The position numbers were made by a program, and so were the translations under genes. A stretch of DNA of 32,000 nucleotides, from NCBI RefSeq assembly GCF_018336915.1, contig NZ_CP064923.1, positions 5,100,001-5,132,000 on the forward strand. Direction: 5' to 3'. Source of the stretch: Acaryochloris marina S15. Its GTDB lineage: Bacteria > Cyanobacteriota > Cyanobacteriia > Thermosynechococcales > Thermosynechococcaceae. The notes below the pieces were generated by a model. The model was given only the letters and a program-made list of their open reading frames with translations, was not told where the DNA came from and did not search any database. This document shows positions 7,605-24,858 of this stretch, piece by piece (position 1 is the stretch's first letter; the number at the start of each line of letters is the position of its first letter).

Positions 7605-8192
7605 CTAAACGATGGCCAAGGGCTTAATCACAGATGAAATCGCATTCGTAATCTCTTGGGGAGACAGACTGCCATCAATTTCCACCAAACATTGGCGACG
7701 CCGATAAAAGTCAATTAACGGGACAGTCTGTTCGTTATAAACCTGCAAACGCTGTCGGATCAGGTCTTCGCTATCATTCTGTCGACCTCGCTTTAGCATC
7801 CGCTCCACGAGTTTATTTTCGGGAACATCAAAGTACACCACCTGCCCATAGGGTTGTCCCATAATTTGCAGTAAGGTATCCAGAGCCTGGGACTGAGCCA
7901 GATTACGAGGAAACCCATCCAAAATCCATCCATGCTGGGTGGCGGGCGTGCCAAAGCTTTCCCGCATCAGGTCAACCATCAGCTGATCGGGCACGAGTTC
8001 TCCCGCTTCCATTTGGGCTTGGGCTTGTTTACCTAAGTCAGATTGGGATGCGATGGTTTCCAACCGGCCTTTGGCCATCGCATCTCGCAACAGATCCCCC
8101 GTAGACAGGCTGGGAATCCGCCAGCGGGCAGCCAAAGATGCTGCTTGGGTACTTTTGCCAGAACCCGGTGGGCCAAGAAAAACAAGTCGCAT
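7605..8192 (-). CDS. adk: Adenylate kinase (short-lid type)
   Basis: P-loop MRLVFLGPPGSGKSTQA; STGDLLR; ELVPD; ILDGFPRNLAQ; RGRQNDSED...R lid without a Zn-Cys4 motif. The track ORF starts at 8222. The internal ATG at 8192 gives the canonical N-terminus. The gene stands alone, not in a ribosomal-protein cluster. Confidence 0.9.
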   Translation of the reverse strand: MRLVFLGPPGSGKSTQAASLAARWRIPSLSTGDLLRDAMAKGRLETIASQSDLGKQAQAQMEAGELVPDQLMVDLMRESFGTPATQHGWILDGFPRNLAQSQALDTLLQIMGQPYGQVVYFDVPENKLVERMLKRGRQNDSEDLIRQRLQVYNEQTVPLIDFYRRRQCLVEIDGSLSPQEITNAISSVIKPLAIV

Positions 8193-8584
8193 AGGGGTAG
8201 GGAGGAATGACAGGACAACCAAAAATGTTCTGAAAAACGCTGTGAATTAGAGGAGAAAACCCACTAACCCAGCTCAATATGTAATTGGAACAAGAAGCTT
8301 ATCTTTTGATGTCAACGTTGCTCTAGATGGTGAGTATAAGAAGATCCAAAGGAACTCATAACCTTCACTTAATCAAGAGAATGAAGCTTTTTCTGTAACA
8401 TCCCCTTTACTATACACTGAATCCGATCCATCCCCAGTCTCAGCAGCGGTGAACGGAGATAAATGGGCTTCTTAGGGTTCTTAAGGTCTATTCCTAAAGG
8501 GAAATGGGCTAGGCAGAGGGACCGCTTTGGGTCATGCTAGAAATCGTGAGTTTTCTCAAGCAGCTTTTTTTTGGAGGTTCAGAT

Positions 8585-9292
8585 ATGAGCGCAGTTGATC
8601 CCGTTAAGTTAATGAAACAACAGGTGGGCAAAGCCGCAGCAGATCGGGTTCAGTCTGGCTCAGTGATCGGGTTGGGAACCGGGTCCACCACGGCATTTGC
8701 CATTCAGTTTTTAGGTGATCGGATTAAGTCAGGTGAATTAACCGATATCAAAGGCATTCCCACCTCCTTTCAAGCCTCCGTATTGGCCAAGCAATATGGC
8801 ATCCCCTTAACTACTCTGGATGAAGTCGATCGGATTCATATCGGCATTGATGGAGCAGACGAAGTCGATCCTCAGAAAAATTTGATTAAAGGCGGAGGCG
8901 CTGCCCATACCCGCGAGAAGGTGGTGGATTCCCTGGCCGAGCAATTTATTGTGGTGGTGGATCAATCCAAAATTGTCGATAAATTGGGATCGACTTTCCC
9001 CGTGCCTGTAGAGGTATTACCCATGGCGATCGCCCCTGTCGTCAAAGCCTTAGAAAAGCTAGGCGGCAAGCCAGAACTGCGCATGGGCATCAAAAAAGAT
9101 GGTCCCGTGATTACCGACCAGGGCAACATGGTATTGGATGTCACCTTCAGCGCCATTCCCAATCCTCCTGAGCTGGAGAAAATCATCAACAATATTCCGG
9201 GCGTGCTGGAAAACGGCATCTTCGTGGGCATGACCGATATTGTCTTAATCGGTGAGATTAAAGACGGAACTCCCATCGTTCGCGAGATGTAA
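8585..9292 (+). CDS. rpiA: Ribose-5-phosphate isomerase A
   Basis: Motifs [39 protein letters not shown] at 8585 with GGAGG 7 nt upstream is preferred over the track start at 8534. Confidence 0.9.
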
Positions 9293-9299
9293 TTGACTT

Positions 9300-9330
9300 G
9301 CAGGGTAAGAACTACAAGCTCTTATCCTGC
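9300..9330. terminator. Hairpin between convergent rpiA and cysK (possible terminator)
   Basis: 11-bp stem gcagggtaaga (9300-9310) / tcttatcctgc (9320-9330) with one G:U pair on the plus strand and a 9-nt loop. No clear U-tract on either strand, so the function is uncertain. Confidence 0.3.
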
Positions 9331-9372
9331 TCACCGCTGACTCATACTGGCGGCACGCACAAATTCAAACCG

Positions 9373-10317
9373 CTAATGAGATTCGGCATCATGGAACAGG
9401 GGTGTACTGAGATAGCGCTCACCAAAGCTAGGCTGAATCATCACAATCAATTTGTCTTTATTTTCAGGTCGTTTCGCCACTTGGATGGCAGCACATAGAG
9501 CCGCGCCGGATGAGATCCCAGAGAGCAATCCTTCTTCCCGCGCTAACCGCCGACCATAAGCGATGGCATCGTCATCATTGACCAGAATCACTTCATCAAT
9601 CAGATCCACTTTTAAAACGGGAGGCACAAATCCCGCGCCGATCCCTTGGATTTTGTGGGGACCGGGAGATCCGCCAGATAAGATCGGGCTGCCTTCCGGC
9701 TCCACTGCGATCGCCTGAAACGATTTCTTCCGAGCTTTTAAAACTTCTGCCACCCCGGTCAAGGTACCCCCCGTTCCCACTCCGGCAATTAAGAAATCTA
9801 CTTTGCCATCGGTATCGGCCCAAATCTCCTCTGCTGTGGTTTGGCGATGAATTTGGGGATTAGCTGGATTACGAAACTGCTGCAGCATATAGGCATTGGG
9901 GAGAGTATCCACTAGCTCCTGGGCCCGTTCGATACAGCCCCGCATCCCTTCTGTGCCTGGGGTCAGCTCCAACTCAGCACCATAGGCCCGCAGCATCGCC
10001 CGGCGCTCGGCACTCATGGTTTCCGGCATCGTTAAAATCAGGCGATAGCCTTTGGCCGCCGCCACCATTGCTAAGGCAATCCCCGTATTACCAGAGGTGG
10101 GTTCCACCAATACCGTGATGCCAGGATGAATCAGTCCTTGCTTTTCAGCAATAGCAATCATATTGCTACCAATCCGATCTTTCACTGAAGAGGACGGATT
10201 GAGGCTCTCCAGCTTGATAACAATTTTGGCAAGGCACCCTTCCATCTTGGGAATGCGATTGAGTTGAATGAGCGGCGTTTTACCAATCAGTTCAGTAATA
10301 TCGTGGGCAATACGCAT
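9373..10317 (-). CDS. cysK: Cysteine synthase A (O-acetylserine sulfhydrylase)
   Basis: 314 aa. PLP-lysine motif [11 protein letters not shown]; [10 protein letters not shown]; [10 protein letters not shown]. Confidence 0.9.
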
Positions 10318-10389
10318 AGTGAAAGTCTCTGCTTATCAGTTCGGTCAAGGAGGGAAGCGTAGCTCAGGCAACTGAGGCCTGCCCTTAGT

Positions 10390-10827
10390 TTAGATGTAAT
10401 ACATTAAGTCAATTTGTTTTTTAGCATCTCTGCGATCGCAAAGATCTTGCAACGTACAATTCTTGAGGATCTGACTCGCCGCCTGATCTGCTTCTTGCCA
10501 CAGTTCCTGGACCACGGCTTTCTCCGTCGTCAGTCCCGGTTGAGGCAGGGCGTTCGGTTGTGCGTCTCTCCCTTCTATACAGTTAATGATTTCTAGAAGG
10601 GTAATTTTCCAGGGTTCACGGGCCAATAAATATCCGCCGCGAGCCCCCCGCTGAGAGCAGACTAAACCTGAACGACGCAGGATTGCCAGGAGCTGTTCTA
10701 AATATCGATCGGGAATATGTTGTTGGGCTGCAATTTGGCGGATTCGTAGCGGCTCCCCTTGAGGGTAGTGATCCACCAGGGACAGTAACGCCAACACCGC
10801 ATATTCACATTTACATGACAATTCCAC
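10390..10827 (-). CDS. Rrf2-family transcriptional regulator
   Basis: 145 aa with a GTG start. CKCEYAVLALLSL...PLRIRQIAAQQHIPDRYLEQLLAILRRSGLVCSQRGARGGYLLA is the Rrf2 wHTH signature. It lies 72 bp upstream of cysK on the same strand. Confidence 0.85.
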   Translation of the reverse strand: MELSCKCEYAVLALLSLVDHYPQGEPLRIRQIAAQQHIPDRYLEQLLAILRRSGLVCSQRGARGGYLLAREPWKITLLEIINCIEGRDAQPNALPQPGLTTEKAVVQELWQEADQAASQILKNCTLQDLCDRRDAKKQIDLMYYI

Positions 10828-16434: not shown

Positions 16435-19400
16435 ATGGGTTCTGAAACTCCTCCCCCTCCACCAGAGCATTTTTTGAAATCTTCAACTGAGTCAATGGCT
16501 CAGTTGCTTCGCTGGATCGCGGAGTTAGTCCGACAGCGCAATTGGTACATGCTGTTGGTTTTAGTAGGAGTAGGGCTAGCACTATTAACTCATTTCGGTC
16601 GAGATCAGCTCAATCAATTCATCAAGCCAGAATATCAAACTGCCTTCTCATTTTTTCTATGGGGTGGGGTGGTGTTGATCATTCTAGTGGCTTTGGGGTT
16701 TGCCCTCAAAACCCTACCTCGAACTCAGCCCCCTAACCTCGAAGATTTAGCAGAGCGCAAAGCGATTAAGGGACTGCGACCCTTTAGCCAAGACGATGCA
16801 GAAATTTTTGCCCGATTGCAGCGAGAACGATTGCTCCAAACTTGTGTAGAAGTGATCACTAGCTCTGACTTCCGATTTGGAATTTTAGTAGGAGAGTCGG
16901 GCTGTGGGAAGACTTCTGTTTTACAAGCTGGAATTTTACCTCAGTTTCTGAGGTCCGAATGTGAGTTCTGCGGTGTATACGTGCGGTTTTCGGACCAAGA
17001 ACCGCTGGCTGCCATTCGGCAGGCATTAGCTGAGCAGCTAGAAATTCCGATGGAGTGGTTGACCACTGAAACGGATGCACATCCTTTTTTGGCGCTCTTA
17101 ACGCAAGCGGTGACTGCTGCGGACAAGCCTGTGGTCCTGTTTTTGGACCAGTTTGAGCAATGGTATGTCCATGCCAAGCAGCCCGAGGATCGTCAGCCGT
17201 TTTTGCAAGGGTTAATGGCATGGTACAAACAGCCCACTCCGCCAGTGAAGATTCTGGTCTCGATCCGCTCAGATTTGTTTTTCCATATTGTAGAAATCCA
17301 GAAGGCACTCCACTTTGACCTCGGTCCCCAGGATGTGTTTCAGTTGGCCAAGTTTACGCCTGCTGAAGCGACCCAGGTATTGGCGGTGATTGCTCACACA
17401 GAAAATCTCCGGTTTGAAGAATCTTTTGTCATGGAGCTGGCGGAGCAAGAGTTGGCAGGTCGGGAAGATGGGCTGATTTCTCCGGTGGATGTGCAGATTT
17501 TGGCCTGGATGATTGAACGCCAAAATGCCTCGGAGTTGCGGGCCTTTAATCGCCAAGCTTTCCAGAAGTTTGGGGGTGTGGAAGGGCTGTTGATGCGGTT
17601 CTTGGATAAAGCCTTGATGGCTCGGGTCTCGGAGGGGCAGCGACAGGCTGCCTTAAAAGTATTGTTGGCCCTAACGGATTTGGAACGGCAGGTACGGGCA
17701 GGGGTTTTAACGGTCAGTGAATTACAGCAAAAATTAACGGGATCTCTCTCTTCTCAAGAGGTGCGCGAGGCGGTGAGATGGTTGGAGCGGGGAGATGTAC
17801 GGCTGATTACCCCGATCAACCGACAGCAGCAAGAAGTGGGATATGAACTGGCCCATGAACGCTTAATTCCATCCTTACTCAAACAGGCGGGTCGAGAGTT
17901 ATCGGCGGCAGATCAGGCGAATCAGCTTTTGGATCGGCGGGTGAATGAGTGGTTGGGGAATAACCGCAGTGGGCGTTATCTTTTTGGTCCACGGGAGTTG
18001 TGGTCGATTAAACAGCAAAAGCCCTATTTAACCTGGGGACCCAAACGGCCTCAAAAAGAAAAACTGTTGGCTTTAAGCTGGCGGCGAGTGCAAGGATTCA
18101 CGGGGGCATTGATGGCAGTTTGTTTAGGGATTTCTGTGTTTTTAGGTTGGCTATGGTATATGCCGGCAGGACAAATTCAGCAAGTGCGGTGGGCCTTGGT
18201 GAATCCAATGGGTGGCCCCTTAGATAGAGTTAGCGATGAAGATGCAGTCAGTGCAGCGATTGCTTTTGCCAAAGATGGCAAGAAACAAAAAGCAATGGAT
18301 ATGGTGACCCAATATGTTGATCGTCCAGGGAGTCAGGCTCAATTTTTTAGTCAATTTACATCTGTGTTGATTCATGAGACTGACCATCAATCCATCAAAA
18401 AAGATTTAAACCTAATGCAAGTAAGGGCCAAAAAAATTGATGGCCCAAGGTACAAATCTTCTGCCCTGAGAGCGATTGCAGCCGCCTATGGTCAAATTAA
18501 TGACCCCAAACTCGCTCATGAAGTCTTGAAAAATGCCCTAGCCGTCGCCGAAAAATTTGATGACCCATATTCCAAATCTTCTGCCCTGAGAGCGATTGCA
18601 GCCGCCTATGGTCAAATCAATGACCCCAAACTCGCCCAGGAAGGATTGAAAAATGCCCTAGCCGTCGCCGAAAAATTTGATGACCCAAGTTCCAAATCCG
18701 ATGCCCTGAGAGCGATTGCAGCCGCCTATGGTCAAATCAATGACCCCAAACTCGCCCAGGAAGGATTGAAAAATGCCCTAGCCGTTGCCGAAAAAATCGA
18801 TGACCCAAGGTACAAATCCTCTGGCCTGAGAGCGATTGCAGCCGCCTATGGTCAAATCAATGACCCCAAACTCGCCCATGAAGGATTGAAAAATGCCCTA
18901 ACTGTCGCCGAAAAAATTGATGACCCAAGGTACAAATCCTCTGCCCTGAGAGCGATTGCAGCCGCCTATGGTCAAATCAATGACCCCAAACTCGCCCATG
19001 AAGTCTTGAAAAATGCCCTAACTGTCGCCGAAAAATTTGATGACCCACGTGACAAATCCAATGCCCTGAGTGCGATTGCAGCCGCCTATGGTCAAATCAA
19101 TGACCCCAAACTCGCCCATGAAGTCTTGAAAAATGCCCTAACTGTCGCCGAAAAATTTGATGACCCACGTGACAAATCCAATGCCCTGAGTGCGATTGCA
19201 GCCGCCTATGGTCAAATCAATGACCCCAAACTCGCCCATGAAGTCTTGAAAAATGCCCTAACTGTCGCCGAAAAAATTGATGAGCCAACTGACAAATTCT
19301 ATGCCCTGAGAACGATTGCAGCCGTTTATGGTCAAGTCAATGACCCCAAACTCGCCCATGAAGTCTTGAAAAATGCCCTAACCGTCGCCGAAAAAATTGA

Positions 19401-20334
19401 TGACCCACGTGACAAATCCAATGCCCTGAGTGCGATTGCAGCCGCCTATGGTCAAGTCAATGACCCCAAACTCGCCCATGAAGTCTTGAAAAATGCCCTA
19501 ACTGTCGTCGAAAAAATTGATAACCCAAGTTCCAAATCCAATGCCCTGAGAGCGATTGCAGACGCCTATGGTCAAATTAATGACCCCAAACTCGCCCATG
19601 AAGGATTGAAAAATGCCCTAACCGTCGCCGAAAAAATTGATGACCCACGTGACAAATCCAATACCCTGAGAGCGATTGCAGATGCCTATGGTCAAATTAA
19701 TGACCCCAAACTCGCCCAGGAAGGATTAAAGAAGACTCTAAAAGCTGCAGAAGCAGCTAATGCCGAAAGTGTTATGGAAGCAATTTCTGTAAAATATGCC
19801 TATCTAAGCGATTGGGGACAGTCATTAAAGGCCCTGAGATATTGCCCAGAATCTTGGAAAGTGAAAGCCCAGATCAAACTTTTGACCCTTTGGGCTGAGA
19901 AAAAAAATCCTAGATTGATCAATGGCGCAGTGATTGTAGAGCAGCCTGAAGCATCTGAAGAACGGGGTAAATATACCTTCAAGGCCAATCTTTATGGTCC
20001 TACAGAAGGTTGTAATCAGTATGTGGATTGGTGGGAAATCCTAAGTGAAGATCAGGAGCTATTAGATCGCCCCCATTTTGACATCAGTCATGATGATCAA
20101 CAGCCTTTCTCTAGTACGAGTAAGCCCATCCAAGCGTCAGACAATCAAACACTTCTAATTCGGGCTCACCTCCATCTTGAAAACAAAGATAAAAGTGGCT
20201 ATGAGGCCAGACAGGCTTGGAAAGGAACGATCAAAGATGGCTTCGAAATGATTCGCCTACCTGAGAGATTTGCCACCAATCTTGCCAAAGCGGACCCACA
20301 ACCCAAACCTTGCCAAGATAAGTCCCTAACTTAA
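16435..20334 (+). CDS. Membrane-anchored STAND-type P-loop NTPase (NLR-like) with 11 tandem 40-aa helical repeats and an orphan C-terminal domain
   Basis: 1299-aa ORF. Two hydrophobic helices at aa ~37-54 and ~69-91. Pre-P-loop motif KGLRPFSQDDAEIFARLQRE. Walker A GESGCGKTS at 16891-16917. Walker B VVLFLDQFE at 17131-17157. A helical/wHTH-like region ends YELAHERLIP...RRVNEWL. A third hydrophobic helix, GFTGALMAVCLGISVFLGWLWYM, is at aa ~554-576. The repeat array is at 18439-19758. The ~190-aa C-terminal region is unrecognised. The motif order resembles the 'novel STAND' NTPases often fused to WD40/TPR arrays in cyanobacteria and actinobacteria (from memory, not searched). Confidence 0.85.
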   Translation: MGSETPPPPPEHFLKSSTESMAQLLRWIAELVRQRNWYMLLVLVGVGLALLTHFGRDQLNQFIKPEYQTAFSFFLWGGVVLIILVALGFALKTLPRTQPPNLEDLAERKAIKGLRPFSQDDAEIFARLQRERLLQTCVEVITSSDFRFGILVGESGCGKTSVLQAGILPQFLRSECEFCGVYVRFSDQEPLAAIRQALAEQLEIPMEWLTTETDAHPFLALLTQAVTAADKPVVLFLDQFEQWYVHAKQPEDRQPFLQGLMAWYKQPTPPVKILVSIRSDLFFHIVEIQKALHFDLGPQDVFQLAKFTPAEATQVLAVIAHTENLRFEESFVMELAEQELAGREDGLISPVDVQILAWMIERQNASELRAFNRQAFQKFGGVEGLLMRFLDKALMARVSEGQRQAALKVLLALTDLERQVRAGVLTVSELQQKLTGSLSSQEVREAVRWLERGDVRLITPINRQQQEVGYELAHERLIPSLLKQAGRELSAADQANQLLDRRVNEWLGNNRSGRYLFGPRELWSIKQQKPYLTWGPKRPQKEKLLALSWRRVQGFTGALMAVCLGISVFLGWLWYMPAGQIQQVRWALVNPMGGPLDRVSDEDAVSAAIAFAKDGKKQKAMDMVTQYVDRPGSQAQFFSQFTSVLIHETDHQSIKKDLNLMQVRAKKIDGPRYKSSALRAIAAAYGQINDPKLAHEVLKNALAVAEKFDDPYSKSSALRAIAAAYGQINDPKLAQEGLKNALAVAEKFDDPSSKSDALRAIAAAYGQINDPKLAQEGLKNALAVAEKIDDPRYKSSGLRAIAAAYGQINDPKLAHEGLKNALTVAEKIDDPRYKSSALRAIAAAYGQINDPKLAHEVLKNALTVAEKFDDPRDKSNALSAIAAAYGQINDPKLAHEVLKNALTVAEKFDDPRDKSNALSAIAAAYGQINDPKLAHEVLKNALTVAEKIDEPTDKFYALRTIAAVYGQVNDPKLAHEVLKNALTVAEKIDDPRDKSNALSAIAAAYGQVNDPKLAHEVLKNALTVVEKIDNPSSKSNALRAIADAYGQINDPKLAHEGLKNALTVAEKIDDPRDKSNTLRAIADAYGQINDPKLAQEGLKKTLKAAEAANAESVMEAISVKYAYLSDWGQSLKALRYCPESWKVKAQIKLLTLWAEKKNPRLINGAVIVEQPEASEERGKYTFKANLYGPTEGCNQYVDWWEILSEDQELLDRPHFDISHDDQQPFSSTSKPIQASDNQTLLIRAHLHLENKDKSGYEARQAWKGTIKDGFEMIRLPERFATNLAKADPQPKPCQDKSLT
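18439..19758 (+). repeat. 11 in-frame tandem repeats of 120 bp (40 aa) inside the STAND gene
   Basis: Repeat units start at 18439, 18559, 18679, 18799, 18919, 19039, 19159, 19279, 19399, 19519 and 19639. Consensus: DDPRxKSxALRAIAAAYGQINDPKLAHEVLKNALTVAEKI. Lines 19021-19140 and 19141-19260 are letter-for-letter identical. More degenerate units flank the array on both sides. Confidence 0.97.

Positions 20335-23685: not shown

Positions 23686-24858
<1,173 letters not shown>

Follow-up and report, generated by a model that had tools for sequence, protein, structure and literature searches.

What kind of protein is encoded by a gene that joins three membrane segments, a P-loop NTPase and a repeat array in a single chain, and on which side of the membrane would each part lie? 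The question was raised by an earlier note on a window of Acaryochloris marina S15 DNA (the whole 32-kb stretch that was analysed), which had read one 1299-aa open reading frame as a candidate novel NLR-like sensor or conflict protein. Every detail of the five-part layout claimed there was confirmed, the parts being, in order, a 2-TM hairpin, a P-loop NTPase, a further TM helix (TM3), eleven 40-aa repeats and a C-terminal domain (Table 1). The motif positions were also correct (KGLRPF at 112, DDAEIF at 120, GESGCGKTS at 153, VVLFLDQFE at 233 and YELAHERLIP at 470), and since GESGCGKTS begins at 153, the numbering of K159 holds. The start codon is backed by homologue alignments that begin at residue 1, and a Kyte-Doolittle scan of the full ORF found no hydrophobic segment beyond the three peaks listed in the table. 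Chance is not the explanation: upwards of 100 homologues share this arrangement.

Table 1. Features of the gene, with coordinates in the window (KD, Kyte-Doolittle; AF2, AlphaFold2; TRF, Tandem Repeats Finder).
Feature	Residues	Position	Strand	Basis
Whole gene, 1299 aa + stop	1-1299	16435..20334	+	ORF list; ATG start
N-terminal tail, predicted cytoplasmic	1-36	16435..16542	+	Family alignment; AF2 helix 11-33
TM1	37-55	16543..16599	+	KD 1.82
TM2	70-91	16642..16707	+	KD 2.66 (peak aa 73-91); AF2 helix 65-93
nSTAND1 NTPase module (NBD, helical domain, winged helix)	112-511	16768..17967	+	Pfam PF20703; AF2
Walker A GESGCGKTS, K159	153-161	16891..16917	+	Sequence
Walker B VVLFLDQFE, D238, E241	233-241	17131..17157	+	Sequence
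Winged-helix motif YELAHERLIP	470-479	17842..17871	+	Alignments; AF2 model
Juxtamembrane helices, highly conserved, predicted cytoplasmic	480-554	17872..18096	+	Family alignments
TM3	555-573	18097..18153	+	KD 2.01; AF2 continuous helix 538-575
Pre-repeat helical region, predicted extracytoplasmic	574-665	18154..18429	+	BLASTP; family alignment
Eleven 40-aa TPR-like repeats	666-1105	18430..19749	+	TRF; Pfam TPR_12 124.7 bits
Helical cap, degenerate repeat-like helices	1106-1159	19750..19911	+	AF2
C-terminal Ig-like beta-sandwich	1160-1299	19912..20331	+	Alignments A1, A3; AF2

The NTPase falls in a STAND family, as had been supposed, with a full-length match to Pfam nSTAND1 (PF20703; 135.1 bits against a cut-off of 27.1, E=6e-39, profile positions 3-376 of 379). 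The AlphaFold2 model of this module (pLDDT >85) has an NBD-HD-WHD fold, and Foldseek matched the modelled NOD to Orc1/Cdc6, 2qen, CED-4 and the ZAR1/Sr35/G10 resistosomes with E values of 1e-8 to 1e-6. A NACHT identity was rejected (19.4 bits, Pfam cut-off 26.7), as was that of a known Avs, for which the PADLOC models gave no match; no Pfam match to KAP was found, and the PADLOC defence models returned nothing apart from generic TPR. Walker A residues G153, G156, G158, K159 and S161 do not vary among 75 sequences, the invariant residues of the Walker B region being D238, Q239, F240, E241 and Q242. The YELAHERLIP motif, with invariant E471 and H474, falls in the winged-helix strands (458-472) and helix (477-488) of the model, and H474 is a candidate counterpart of the NLR 'MHD' histidine. 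In the juxtamembrane helices, which close with a polybasic cluster, R502 and W506 are invariant in alignments A2 and A4 and N504 in A2, many neighbours being near-invariant. The NOD and juxtamembrane regions retain 50-58% identity across cyanobacterial orders; such conservation is unusual for an immune gene, and a conserved signalling role would also fit.

The explanation to which we give slightly better than even chances is a single-polypeptide, membrane-integrated NLR-like receptor of periplasmic ligands, in which oligomerisation would cluster the N-terminal hairpins and perturb the membrane. Weighing against it are the housekeeping setting, the synteny of the locus, the occurrence of the hairpin beside EAD11 or a kinase, the high conservation of the NOD and juxtamembrane regions, and the PADLOC result.

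The output of such a receptor depends on how the hairpin is read. It follows a tail ending with a conserved basic, amphipathic motif (RWIAELxRxRNW), and of about 120 representatives of the clade, 66 have both TM1 and TM2, joined by a loop of median 18 aa in which K/R are scarce. Family alignments reveal near-invariant W37, L41 and L43 in TM1 and an invariant or near-invariant small-xxx-small pair, A86/A90, in TM2. Because the hairpin is dropped exactly when TIR or CHAT is present, carries these conserved residues and stands alone in the majority of the clade, and because 7 loci show no conserved partner gene, we infer that it may act as the effector or output module. The earlier claim that it is the only candidate output would fit most of the clade, where it is the sole N-terminal element, but not the relatives in which it sits beside EAD11 (EAD11+2TM+nSTAND1+TM; P0358, P0359, P0361) or a kinase (Pkinase+2TM+nSTAND1+TM; P0262); in the light of these, the hairpin might serve for anchoring or packing and not as an effector. 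The receptor would then be the same, and its oligomer would signal to an unlinked cytoplasmic partner, e.g. via the RWIAELxRxRNW tail, giving a regulatory or stress response or an effector recruited in trans instead of damage to its own membrane. This alternative, which agrees with the conserved tail motif, the strongly conserved cytoplasmic parts and the housekeeping gene context, is possible but rather doubtful: no neighbour gene is shared by the 7 loci, the hairpin is alone in the effector position for most of the clade, and the TIR and CHAT variants lose it while keeping TM3, so that anchoring does not require it and its behaviour is that of a swappable module at the N-terminus.

Beyond the membrane segments, a pre-repeat region with a conserved P.GQIQQVRW motif is kept in more than 45 homologues (BLASTP), and the 11 near-identical helical repeats described previously were recovered by Tandem Repeats Finder as a 120-bp unit in 10.8 copies (93% matches, 0 indels, 18427-19723), the 11 in-register units having pairwise nucleotide identities of 78-100% with units 6 and 7 identical. 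Repeat positions 5, 7, 8, 11 and 14 are hypervariable, the same five in 19 family members, and pN/pS is 3.8-4.2 at these sites vs 0.41-0.45 elsewhere, a contrast that contains some circularity, variability having been the criterion for picking the sites, and that is complicated by concerted evolution among repeats. The 98%-identical sister strain (96% DNA identity between the strains) has 1 repeat vs 11 here, and its copy, with two frameshifting indels, appears frameshifted.

TIR, caspase-like CHAT and EAD11 domains are hallmarks of conflict systems. The homologue survey found swaps at both ends of the protein, the N-terminal slot of close relatives being filled by TIR_2 (7 relatives), CHAT, Pkinase or EAD11 at 43-56% NOD identity and the sensor of some other relatives being of FGE-sulfatase/CLec type, and it found a patchy, multi-phylum spread (343 clusters). 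The domains in the N-terminal slot, the hypervariability of the repeats and the patchy distribution thus lend support to a family that, as judged from sequence, would behave as a conflict system. The NLR-like signalling or defence role advanced in the earlier note gains from the same observations and loses from the neighbourhood, which consists of housekeeping genes, including rsmG, photolyase and a TolC-like gene; the 32-kb window contains no defence or mobile genes and is not a defence island. This neighbourhood of core genes, syntenic between two Acaryochloris strains, together with the frequent involvement of periplasmic TPR proteins in building the envelope, would suit a housekeeping envelope protein without any part in conflict, namely an ATP-driven scaffold or chaperone that uses its periplasmic TPR array to organise how the envelope or thylakoid is assembled. 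Such a role is improbable given the patchy phyla, identities to homologues that are similar within and beyond cyanobacteria, the indels and single repeat of the sister strain's copy, the close paralogues that begin with TIR, CHAT or EAD11 and have FGE/CLec sensors, and the hypervariable repeat positions.

The placement of the sensor across the membrane was assessed by hydropathy and comparative inference. The distance from Walker A to the hydrophobic TM3 segment is 393-425 aa in nearly all full-length homologues, and TM3 is kept in 94 of about 120 representatives, TIR, CHAT and EAD11 variants included. Charge is distributed as the positive-inside rule predicts (mean K+R of 5.4 in the 15 aa before TM3 vs 1.7 after, n=90), and the ectodomain is replaced in relatives by a signal-peptidase domain (Peptidase_S26) or YbbR, both extracytoplasmic domain types. 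The ~190-aa C-terminal domain, described earlier as unrecognisable, is real and conserved; AlphaFold2 (pLDDT 84) models it as a ~55-aa helical cap with conserved W and L residues (helices H12-24, H28-36 and H40-58 in the numbering of the aa 1100-1299 model) and a ~140-aa beta-sandwich. The latter, covered by no Pfam family and with neither a structural match at E<1e-3 nor a sequence match in the PDB, has conserved DWWE and RAH motifs and a Cys pair (C1193, C1293) present in 116 of 119 domains. Its 151 homologues are for the most part free-standing lipoproteins; the free-standing relatives are predicted to carry signal peptides, with an N-terminal hydrophobic region in 86 of 107 and a strict lipobox in 41. 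Four independent lines, namely the fixed TM3, the charge bias, the swapped ectodomains and the lipoprotein-type beta-sandwich with its Cys pair, therefore argue for an extracytoplasmic sensor, and the predicted topology, in which the NTPase is cytoplasmic and the repeats and C-terminal domain are not, is well supported, in agreement with the membrane separation suggested earlier.

If the protein were instead an intracellular NLR of the classical type, only tethered to the membrane, 'TM3' would be a buried or peripheral hydrophobic helix, and everything from the repeats to the C-terminus would be cytoplasmic. This reading would match the characterised bacterial STAND sensors (Avs, bNACHT), all of which act in the cytoplasm, and the moderate hydrophobicity of TM3 (KD 2.0), which has no invariant residues. 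It is nevertheless very unlikely in view of the strong charge bias, the signal-peptide or lipobox relatives, the conserved Cys pair, the S26 or YbbR replacements and the AlphaFold2 model, in which 538-575 form a single long helix standing apart. That the gene, with its expanded repeats, is decaying or non-functional and serves no purpose at present, as the sister strain's apparently frameshifted copy and the lack of an exact match to the 1299-aa protein among 15 billion collected proteins might suggest, is hardly credible beside an intact 3.9-kb ORF, pN/pS of ~0.4 at non-hypervariable repeat sites and the retention of every catalytic or structural residue that is invariant in the family.

Among known systems, the plant CC-NLR resistosomes (ZAR1, Sr35, wheat G10) are the best analogue of the proposed output, combining an oligomerised STAND ring with N-terminal helices that form a membrane channel and ranking with the nearest structures to the NOD model; they differ in an N-terminal helix that is soluble until activation, a cytosolic LRR sensor, an NB-ARC rather than nSTAND1 module and an effector without sequence relationship to the hairpin. 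The fungal NLRs HET-E, HET-D and the NWD family, which serve non-self recognition with a cell-death output, carry internally highly conserved WD/ANK/TPR repeats and share the near-identical units, the variation at few ligand-facing positions and the strain-variable repeat number, but they are eukaryotic, cytosolic NACHT/NB-ARC proteins, whereas the unit here is a 40-aa TPR-like one that is predicted to be extracytoplasmic. KAP proteins are likewise membrane-embedded P-loop NTPases of the same conflict-system contexts, with TM helices inserted within the NTPase domain, whereas here TM helices flank an intact nSTAND1 module. Fungal NLRs of highly conserved repeats are touched on in PMC10907252, and KAP NTPases are mentioned in PMC8195603. 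Avs proteins follow the same tripartite plan, with the effector at the N-terminus, the STAND switch in the middle and a TPR-like sensor at the C-terminus (PMC13581612 and earlier work), ligand-induced oligomerisation switches their effector on, and TM N-terminal modules appear among Avs7 and Dsr1 partners; however, Avs are cytoplasmic sensors of phage proteins and are found in defence contexts, while the predicted sensor here lies beyond the membrane.

The description of the system as novel was overstated. The nSTAND1 conflict-system NTPases were named in 2021 (Kaur, Iyer, Burroughs and Aravind, eLife 2021, PMC8195603), and the source data of that study list 'nSTAND1+TM' 412 times, a total that includes nSTAND1+TM+TPR (22), TIR+nSTAND1+TM (16), CASPASE+nSTAND1+TM+BetaPropeller and EAD7+nSTAND1+TM+FGS; an Acaryochloris marina CASPASE+nSTAND1+TM protein is listed too. 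Additionally, one sentence in Kibby et al. (bioRxiv 10.1101/2022.07.19.500537) predicts that some bNACHT proteins with TM regions sense periplasmic signals, although these belong to another NTPase clade and have several TM regions, which in some cases lie within the NACHT module itself. The NTPase family is the same by profile as that of the PMC8195603 set, but it describes neither a hairpin-only N-terminus nor internally homogeneous 40-aa repeats nor a beta-sandwich of lipoprotein type; 'TM+TM+nSTAND1' is absent from its source data, 'SIG+TM+nSTAND1+TM' appears in 2 entries only, and the main text does not discuss a TM or extracytoplasmic sensor of nSTAND1. The literature search, like the earlier note, yielded no characterised counterpart of the layout. 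Novelty is therefore moderate, since the family, a large one, is already catalogued and nSTAND1+TM+repeat architectures appear in those source data.

Under the favoured reading of a membrane-integrated receptor, a cytoplasmic N-terminus would lead into the TM1-TM2 hairpin, the cytoplasmic nSTAND1 switch and juxtamembrane helix, and the TM3 crossing, placing the 11-unit TPR-like solenoid, the helical cap and the disulfide-bearing beta-sandwich on the periplasmic side (or in the thylakoid lumen). By analogy with other STAND/NLR proteins, the repeats may use their hypervariable face to bind a variable ligand, probably a protein, for which the candidates are a toxin released by a competitor, a surface molecule of non-kin and a part of a phage on its way through the envelope, and the signal would travel via TM3 and the juxtamembrane helices to an ADP-locked NTPase that would swap its nucleotide and oligomerise in the plane of the membrane. 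In the least certain step, the ring would gather the N-terminal hairpins into a leak or pore, and the cell would be arrested or killed. For sister proteins of the same clade, the output would instead be TIR, a caspase-like CHAT or an EAD11 adaptor, and the family is presumed to consist of bacterial immune or conflict proteins.

The gene under study encodes a protein in which a Kyte-Doolittle 19-residue scan finds exactly three hydrophobic segments, TM1, TM2 and TM3. The motifs claimed by the earlier note, including K159 as the Walker A lysine, were all found at the positions given, and its placement of the NTPase among STAND proteins was confirmed by profile search: the cytoplasmic NBD-HD-WHD module (hereafter NOD) is an nSTAND1 domain (Pfam PF20703, 135.1 bits against a gathering threshold of 27.1, E=6.4e-39) with near-complete coverage of the profile (positions 3-376, 374/379), and every relative scanned likewise passed this threshold. 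The Walker A and B motifs fit a STAND P-loop; G153, G156, G158, K159, D238 and E241 are invariant across 75 sequences, the second acidic residue of Walker B being E241 at +3 rather than +1. An AlphaFold2 model of aa 1-600 (75-sequence alignment, mean pLDDT 85) predicts an alpha/beta NTPase, a helical domain and a winged helix, amid long isolated helices corresponding to TM1, TM2 and TM3, which agrees with the expected STAND-type arrangement of the NTPase segment. The nearest solved folds to the modelled module in Foldseek were Orc1/Cdc6, the archaeal ATPase 2qen, CED-4 and the plant ZAR1, Sr35 and G10 resistosomes (probability 1.00, E 1e-8 to 1e-6), a neighborhood that, for a predicted structure, is as expected for a STAND module. 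Additionally, H474 in the ELAHE motif of the winged helix is invariant family-wide and is plausibly the counterpart of the NLR "MHD" histidine.

Several other assignments were considered. NACHT (PF05729) scored 19.4 bits, below its gathering threshold of 26.7 (E=1e-3). In KAP NTPases, TM helices sit within the P-loop domain; in the study protein the TM segments flank the NTPase, no hydrophobic segment lies within aa 92-554, and no Pfam KAP match was obtained. Among the defence-system protein models of PADLOC-DB v2, the sole match was a generic "TPR repeats containing protein" (E=1e-13), a match to PDC-M14B being non-significant; membership of Avs or another catalogued antiphage STAND group was rejected, with neither a PADLOC model match nor a defence-island location. 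A phmmer search of the NOD against PDB sequences returned no match. For the N-terminal hairpin (aa 1-100), no Pfam or NCBIfam family was matched at E<=1 except a non-significant AmaP anchor (E=0.39), and known Pfam pore-forming 2-TM effectors such as SLATT gave no profile match. An exact-sequence look-up found no entry in the collection searched, and the protein therefore has no public name. The most likely reading of two antisense ORFs in the NTPase-coding region, whose translations are low-complexity and Pro/Gln-rich, is that they are spurious and merely shadow the conserved plus-strand gene.

Features of the study gene, its window and its homologues (aa, residues of the study protein; window, positions in the 32,000-nt stretch; L-numbers, homologue loci, with L001 from Acaryochloris sp. 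'Moss Beach'; P-numbers, homologous proteins)
Feature	Position	Members or comment
Study gene	window 16435-20334 (+)	1299 aa
TM1	aa 37-55	first helix of hairpin
TM2	aa 73-91	second helix of hairpin
nSTAND1 (NOD)	aa 112-511	
Walker A	aa 153-161	GESGCGKTS
Walker B	aa 233-241	VVLFLDQFE
TM3	aa 555-573	
Repeat array	aa 666-1105	eleven 40-aa units, in register
Antisense ORF	window 16859-17308 (-)	149 aa
Antisense ORF	window 17269-17556 (-)	95 aa
Tocopherol cyclase gene	window 23686-24837	between TolC-like and DUF3747/SLH genes
'Moss Beach' split orthologue	L001:7826-8068 and 8001-10466	compared with window 16435-16700
'Moss Beach' gap matching the tocopherol cyclase gene	L001:13662-15430	1.8 kb, no gene called
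Uma2-family genes	L003:6123-6707; L004:6049-6654	PF05685
ORF with TIR_2 match	L049:7754-8029	91 aa
2TM-nSTAND1-TM-FGE gene	L049:8001-10475	
Free-standing lipoproteins	L046:6001-6468; L047:6001-6495; L048:6001-6486	examples from P0131-P0240, ~160 aa
TIR_2 N-terminus, no hairpin		P0091, P0278, P0297, P0310, P0312, P0345, P0356
CHAT N-terminus, no hairpin		P0347
EAD11 alone, no hairpin		P0353, P0362
EAD11 plus hairpin		P0358, P0359, P0361
Kinase plus hairpin		P0262

A word-indexed search with aa 1-600 retrieved 326 proteins, most of them spanning 95-100% of the query; the top 120 had E<1e-143. An exhaustive phmmer search of 1.84 billion representatives gave 343 clusters (50% identity) at E<=1e-30, the top 150 all at E<=1e-99. 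Very strong conservation was seen in the cytoplasmic juxtamembrane parts, namely RWIAELxRxRNW before TM1 and KAIKGLRPF..DAEIFARLQRE, and a stretch of ~70 residues that ends polybasic before TM3 is also extremely conserved. The matches listed include many cyanobacteria as well as Acidobacteriota, Marinobacterium, Saprospiraceae, Corallococcus, Nitrosococcus and KSB1, with identities outside the cyanobacteria similar to those within, and one MAG carries two loci of the family. As judged from these sequences, the distribution of the clade appears patchy and horizontally spread; in place of a universal core gene with invariant repeats, patchy distribution and variable repeats were found. The domain survey proposed by the earlier note revealed that N-terminal and ectodomain modules vary on a constant chassis of NOD and TM3. 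In about two thirds of the clade the N-terminus carries nothing but the hairpin, the remaining combinations being listed in the table, and sensor types following the NTPase include TPR, FGE-sulfatase, YbbR and S26 domains, as expected of STAND proteins. TIR domains, caspase-like proteases and EADs are signature output modules of conflict systems (Kaur et al., PMC8195603); the term "EAD11" is absent from that paper, and a literature search for it gave irrelevant matches only. At locus L049, the ORF matching TIR_2 lies upstream of and overlaps a hairpin-bearing FGE-type gene; it is TIR-like over ~55 aa only (MENTKIFISYSWADRD...), the remainder reading as out-of-frame, and it may be the remnant of an N-terminal TIR that was displaced by, or formerly fused ahead of, the hairpin. 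The source data of PMC8195603 (file 1) also list, for Acaryochloris marina MBIC11017, a CASPASE+nSTAND1+TM protein (WP_012165630.1, 1013 aa) and a CASPASE+CASPASE+nSTAND1+BetaPropeller protein, so that the genus has several nSTAND1 paralogues with differing outputs.

The C-terminal domain was modelled by AlphaFold2 (17 sequences, pLDDT 84) as four helices capping the repeat solenoid, followed by an eight-stranded sandwich. Foldseek found no PDB structure at E<1e-3, the weak matches being to Ig-like folds only (superoxide reductase, NPC2, GH2 Ig domains and the Kir cytoplasmic domain); a profile search of PDB sequences was empty, and Pfam holds no model for the domain. A metal site like that of superoxide reductase, suspected from motifs, was unsupported by Foldseek, the matches being too weak to assign function. 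A profile search with the beta-sandwich recovered 151 proteins, mostly free-standing and of 130-200 aa. The domain has the conserved motifs C-x4-DWWE, RAH, GY..QA.KG and P.P..C, and it defines a family of cyanobacterial lipoproteins so far without annotation; these relatives show only the site at which the domain acts. A set of free-standing cyanobacterial members without Pfam annotation (P0131-P0240) carries C-x4-DWWE, GY..QA.KG and the C-terminal P.P..C, with RAH in less than half. Two of three loci examined for the free-standing homologues lie near uvrC, their contexts being otherwise uninformative.

The earlier note's claim that a membrane lies between sensor and NTPase is well supported by four independent comparative lines, which together place the repeats and C-terminal domain in a predicted extracytoplasmic location. 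First, a hydrophobic segment lies 393-425 residues past Walker A in nearly all full-length homologues, and TM3 is kept in 94 of ~120 clade representatives. Second, charges follow the positive-inside rule, with a mean K+R of 5.4 in the 15 residues before TM3 and 1.7 after it (n=90), and 2.8 at each flank of the hairpin compared with 1.6 in its 18-aa loop. Third, the region after TM3 is replaced in relatives by a signal-peptidase S26 domain (P0356), a YbbR-like domain (P0075), or FGE-sulfatase/C-type-lectin-fold domains; the S26 and YbbR-like domains are of types that work outside the cytoplasm. Fourth, among 107 complete free-standing relatives of the beta-sandwich, a hydrophobic signal segment is present at the N-terminus of 86 and a lipobox in the strict sense (for example LSGC) in 41, and the two cysteines flanking the sandwich (C1193, C1293) are conserved in 116 of 119, a pair that would fit a disulfide in an oxidizing compartment.

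The repeat array consists of a 120-bp unit in 10.8 copies with 93% matches and no indels (Tandem Repeats Finder); DNA identity between units is 78-100%, with no difference between units 6 and 7. Since the units differ among themselves, an assembly duplication artefact was rejected as the origin of the array. Pfam TPR_12 (PF13424) matches seven stretches at 124.7 bits against a gathering threshold of 30.1, the unit being 40 aa as opposed to 34 in a canonical TPR, and the NCBIfam matches in this region (FimS, NsdA, AfsR, MalT) were below threshold and judged to be repeat-driven. Both the 40-aa period and the high internal identity are characteristic of the family, 15 of 74 homologues showing at least 80% self-identity across three units. 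Across the arrays of 19 members the most variable unit positions are the same (11, 7, 8, 5 and 14), and they fall in the loop and the initial turns of the first helix. In the study array, pN/pS reaches 3.8-4.2 at these five positions as against 0.41-0.45 at the remaining 35, values to be read in light of site classes picked for variability, mostly from other proteins, and of inter-unit gene conversion, which runs counter to what the model assumes. The orthologue at the same syntenic locus in 'Moss Beach' (96% DNA identity) has ten units fewer, that is, one repeat, and P0241, a homologue 84% identical over aa 1-600, has at least eight. Fungal allorecognition NLRs likewise combine hypervariable repeat positions with copy-number change, and here the two features argue for a fast-evolving ligand-binding surface. 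The repeat region (window 18001-20000) has an AT skew of +0.15 to +0.21 and a GC content of 0.46-0.47, below its flanks, which reflects the composition of the amplified unit and not foreign origin. In the 'Moss Beach' genome (CP071717.1), two extra bases in homopolymer runs (C6 to C7 near codon 7, and a G inserted after a T-run inside TM2) have the result that the hairpin falls in an 80-aa ORF of its own and that the main gene is called from a start inside TM2; this split gene is either a genuine pseudogene or the product of long-read homopolymer error.

All 32 kb of the window are housekeeping in content (GNAT, LysR, adenylate kinase, cysteine-synthase-like PALP, prepilin peptidase, DUF3352, pterin dehydratase, RsmG, 2OG oxygenase, photolyase, a TolC-like gene, tocopherol cyclase, FtsH and others), with no mobile or defence genes. 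Across seven homologue loci no conserved partner gene was found, the neighbors being variable and non-defence. The neighborhood survey therefore indicates a single-gene system and provides no defence context, and a "defence island" argument does not apply. In two loci a Uma2-family gene (putative endonuclease) lies ~300 bp upstream of the homologue on the same strand, the other neighbors differing; this adjacency may be coincidental, Uma2 genes being very abundant in cyanobacteria. A sensor of the DGR-diversified STAND-CLec type was rejected, the study protein having no FGE domain and the window no reverse transcriptase; none was found near FGE-type clade relatives in two loci examined.

Combined, these results establish family membership, modular exchange and repeat variability, and a trans-membrane nSTAND1 receptor of conflict type with an extracytoplasmic sensor is, in our judgment, quite likely. 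In the proposed mechanism, the repeat array would bind a ligand in the periplasm, the signal would be relayed via TM3 and the conserved juxtamembrane helices, and nucleotide exchange would lead to oligomerization in the membrane plane. Clustered hairpins may then perturb the membrane, the favoured output and the least certain step, for which the plant resistosome would be the closest mechanistic analogue; with this step included, the full model is given slightly better than even chances. A membrane output is favoured because the hairpin is lost precisely with TIR or CHAT although TM3 alone keeps the membrane location, because W37, L41, L43 and A86-x3-A90 are specifically conserved, because most members have no N-terminal element other than the hairpin, and because no partner gene is linked. 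The main rival, in which the hairpin is an anchor only and output passes to an unlinked partner, draws on the members that combine EAD11 or a kinase with the hairpin. A cytoplasmic sensor, a housekeeping role and a pseudogene are each contradicted by several observations.

The NLR-like interpretation of the earlier note was largely right, and its novelty was less than claimed: the kind is known, nSTAND1 having been named in the eLife 2021 paper (PMC8195603), and the TM-plus-repeat layout is already catalogued in that paper's source data. There, "nSTAND1+TM" occurs 412 times, including nSTAND1+TM+TPR (22) and TIR+nSTAND1+TM (16), alongside CASPASE+nSTAND1+TM+BetaPropeller, EAD7+nSTAND1+TM+FGS and an Acaryochloris marina CASPASE+nSTAND1+TM, whereas the "TM+TM+nSTAND1" type of the study protein is absent and SIG+TM+nSTAND1+TM appears in two entries only. 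No discussion of a trans-membrane sensor for nSTAND1 was found in the main text. A paper on bacterial NACHT proteins (10.1101/2022.07.19.500537) states in one sentence that some TM-bearing members likely sense intramembrane or periplasmic signals, a DGR paper (PMC10907252) describes one TM-bearing NACHT target whose CLec is predicted to be periplasmic, and the tests of a 2026 survey of 589 STAND clades cover cytoplasmic Avs sensors only. A literature search found no experimental work on any clade member. To this background the present analysis adds comparative sequence evidence pointing to an extracytoplasmic location, the hairpin-only majority form as an equivalent of TIR and CHAT, repeat positions that are hypervariable throughout the family, with unit number expanding from 1 to 11 between strains, and the un-annotated lipoprotein-type beta-sandwich.

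More tentatively, the clade may comprise prokaryotic NLRs that watch the periplasm, uniting a surface pattern-recognition receptor with an NLR switch: rapidly diversifying repeats would detect phage or competitor proteins crossing the envelope before genome entry, the protein's own hairpins would form a pore like that of a resistosome, killing or silencing the cell, and the beta-sandwich would be a new domain with a co-sensing or tethering function. The homogeneous yet hypervariable repeats parallel those of fungal allorecognition NLRs, suggesting convergent generation of receptor diversity. The bacterial NLR-like sensors characterized so far (Avs, bNACHT) all respond to intracellular triggers; if a STAND switch does have its sensor across the membrane, this would mean that bacteria couple extracytoplasmic recognition to NLR-type oligomerization. 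Such a receptor would also pose a mechanistic question that no solved NLR answers, namely how the signal of a bound ligand passes along one TM helix to reach the nucleotide switch. A large clade (343 clusters), in which TIR, caspase-like and hairpin outputs can be exchanged while the chassis stays constant, would be a convenient system in which to test this relay.
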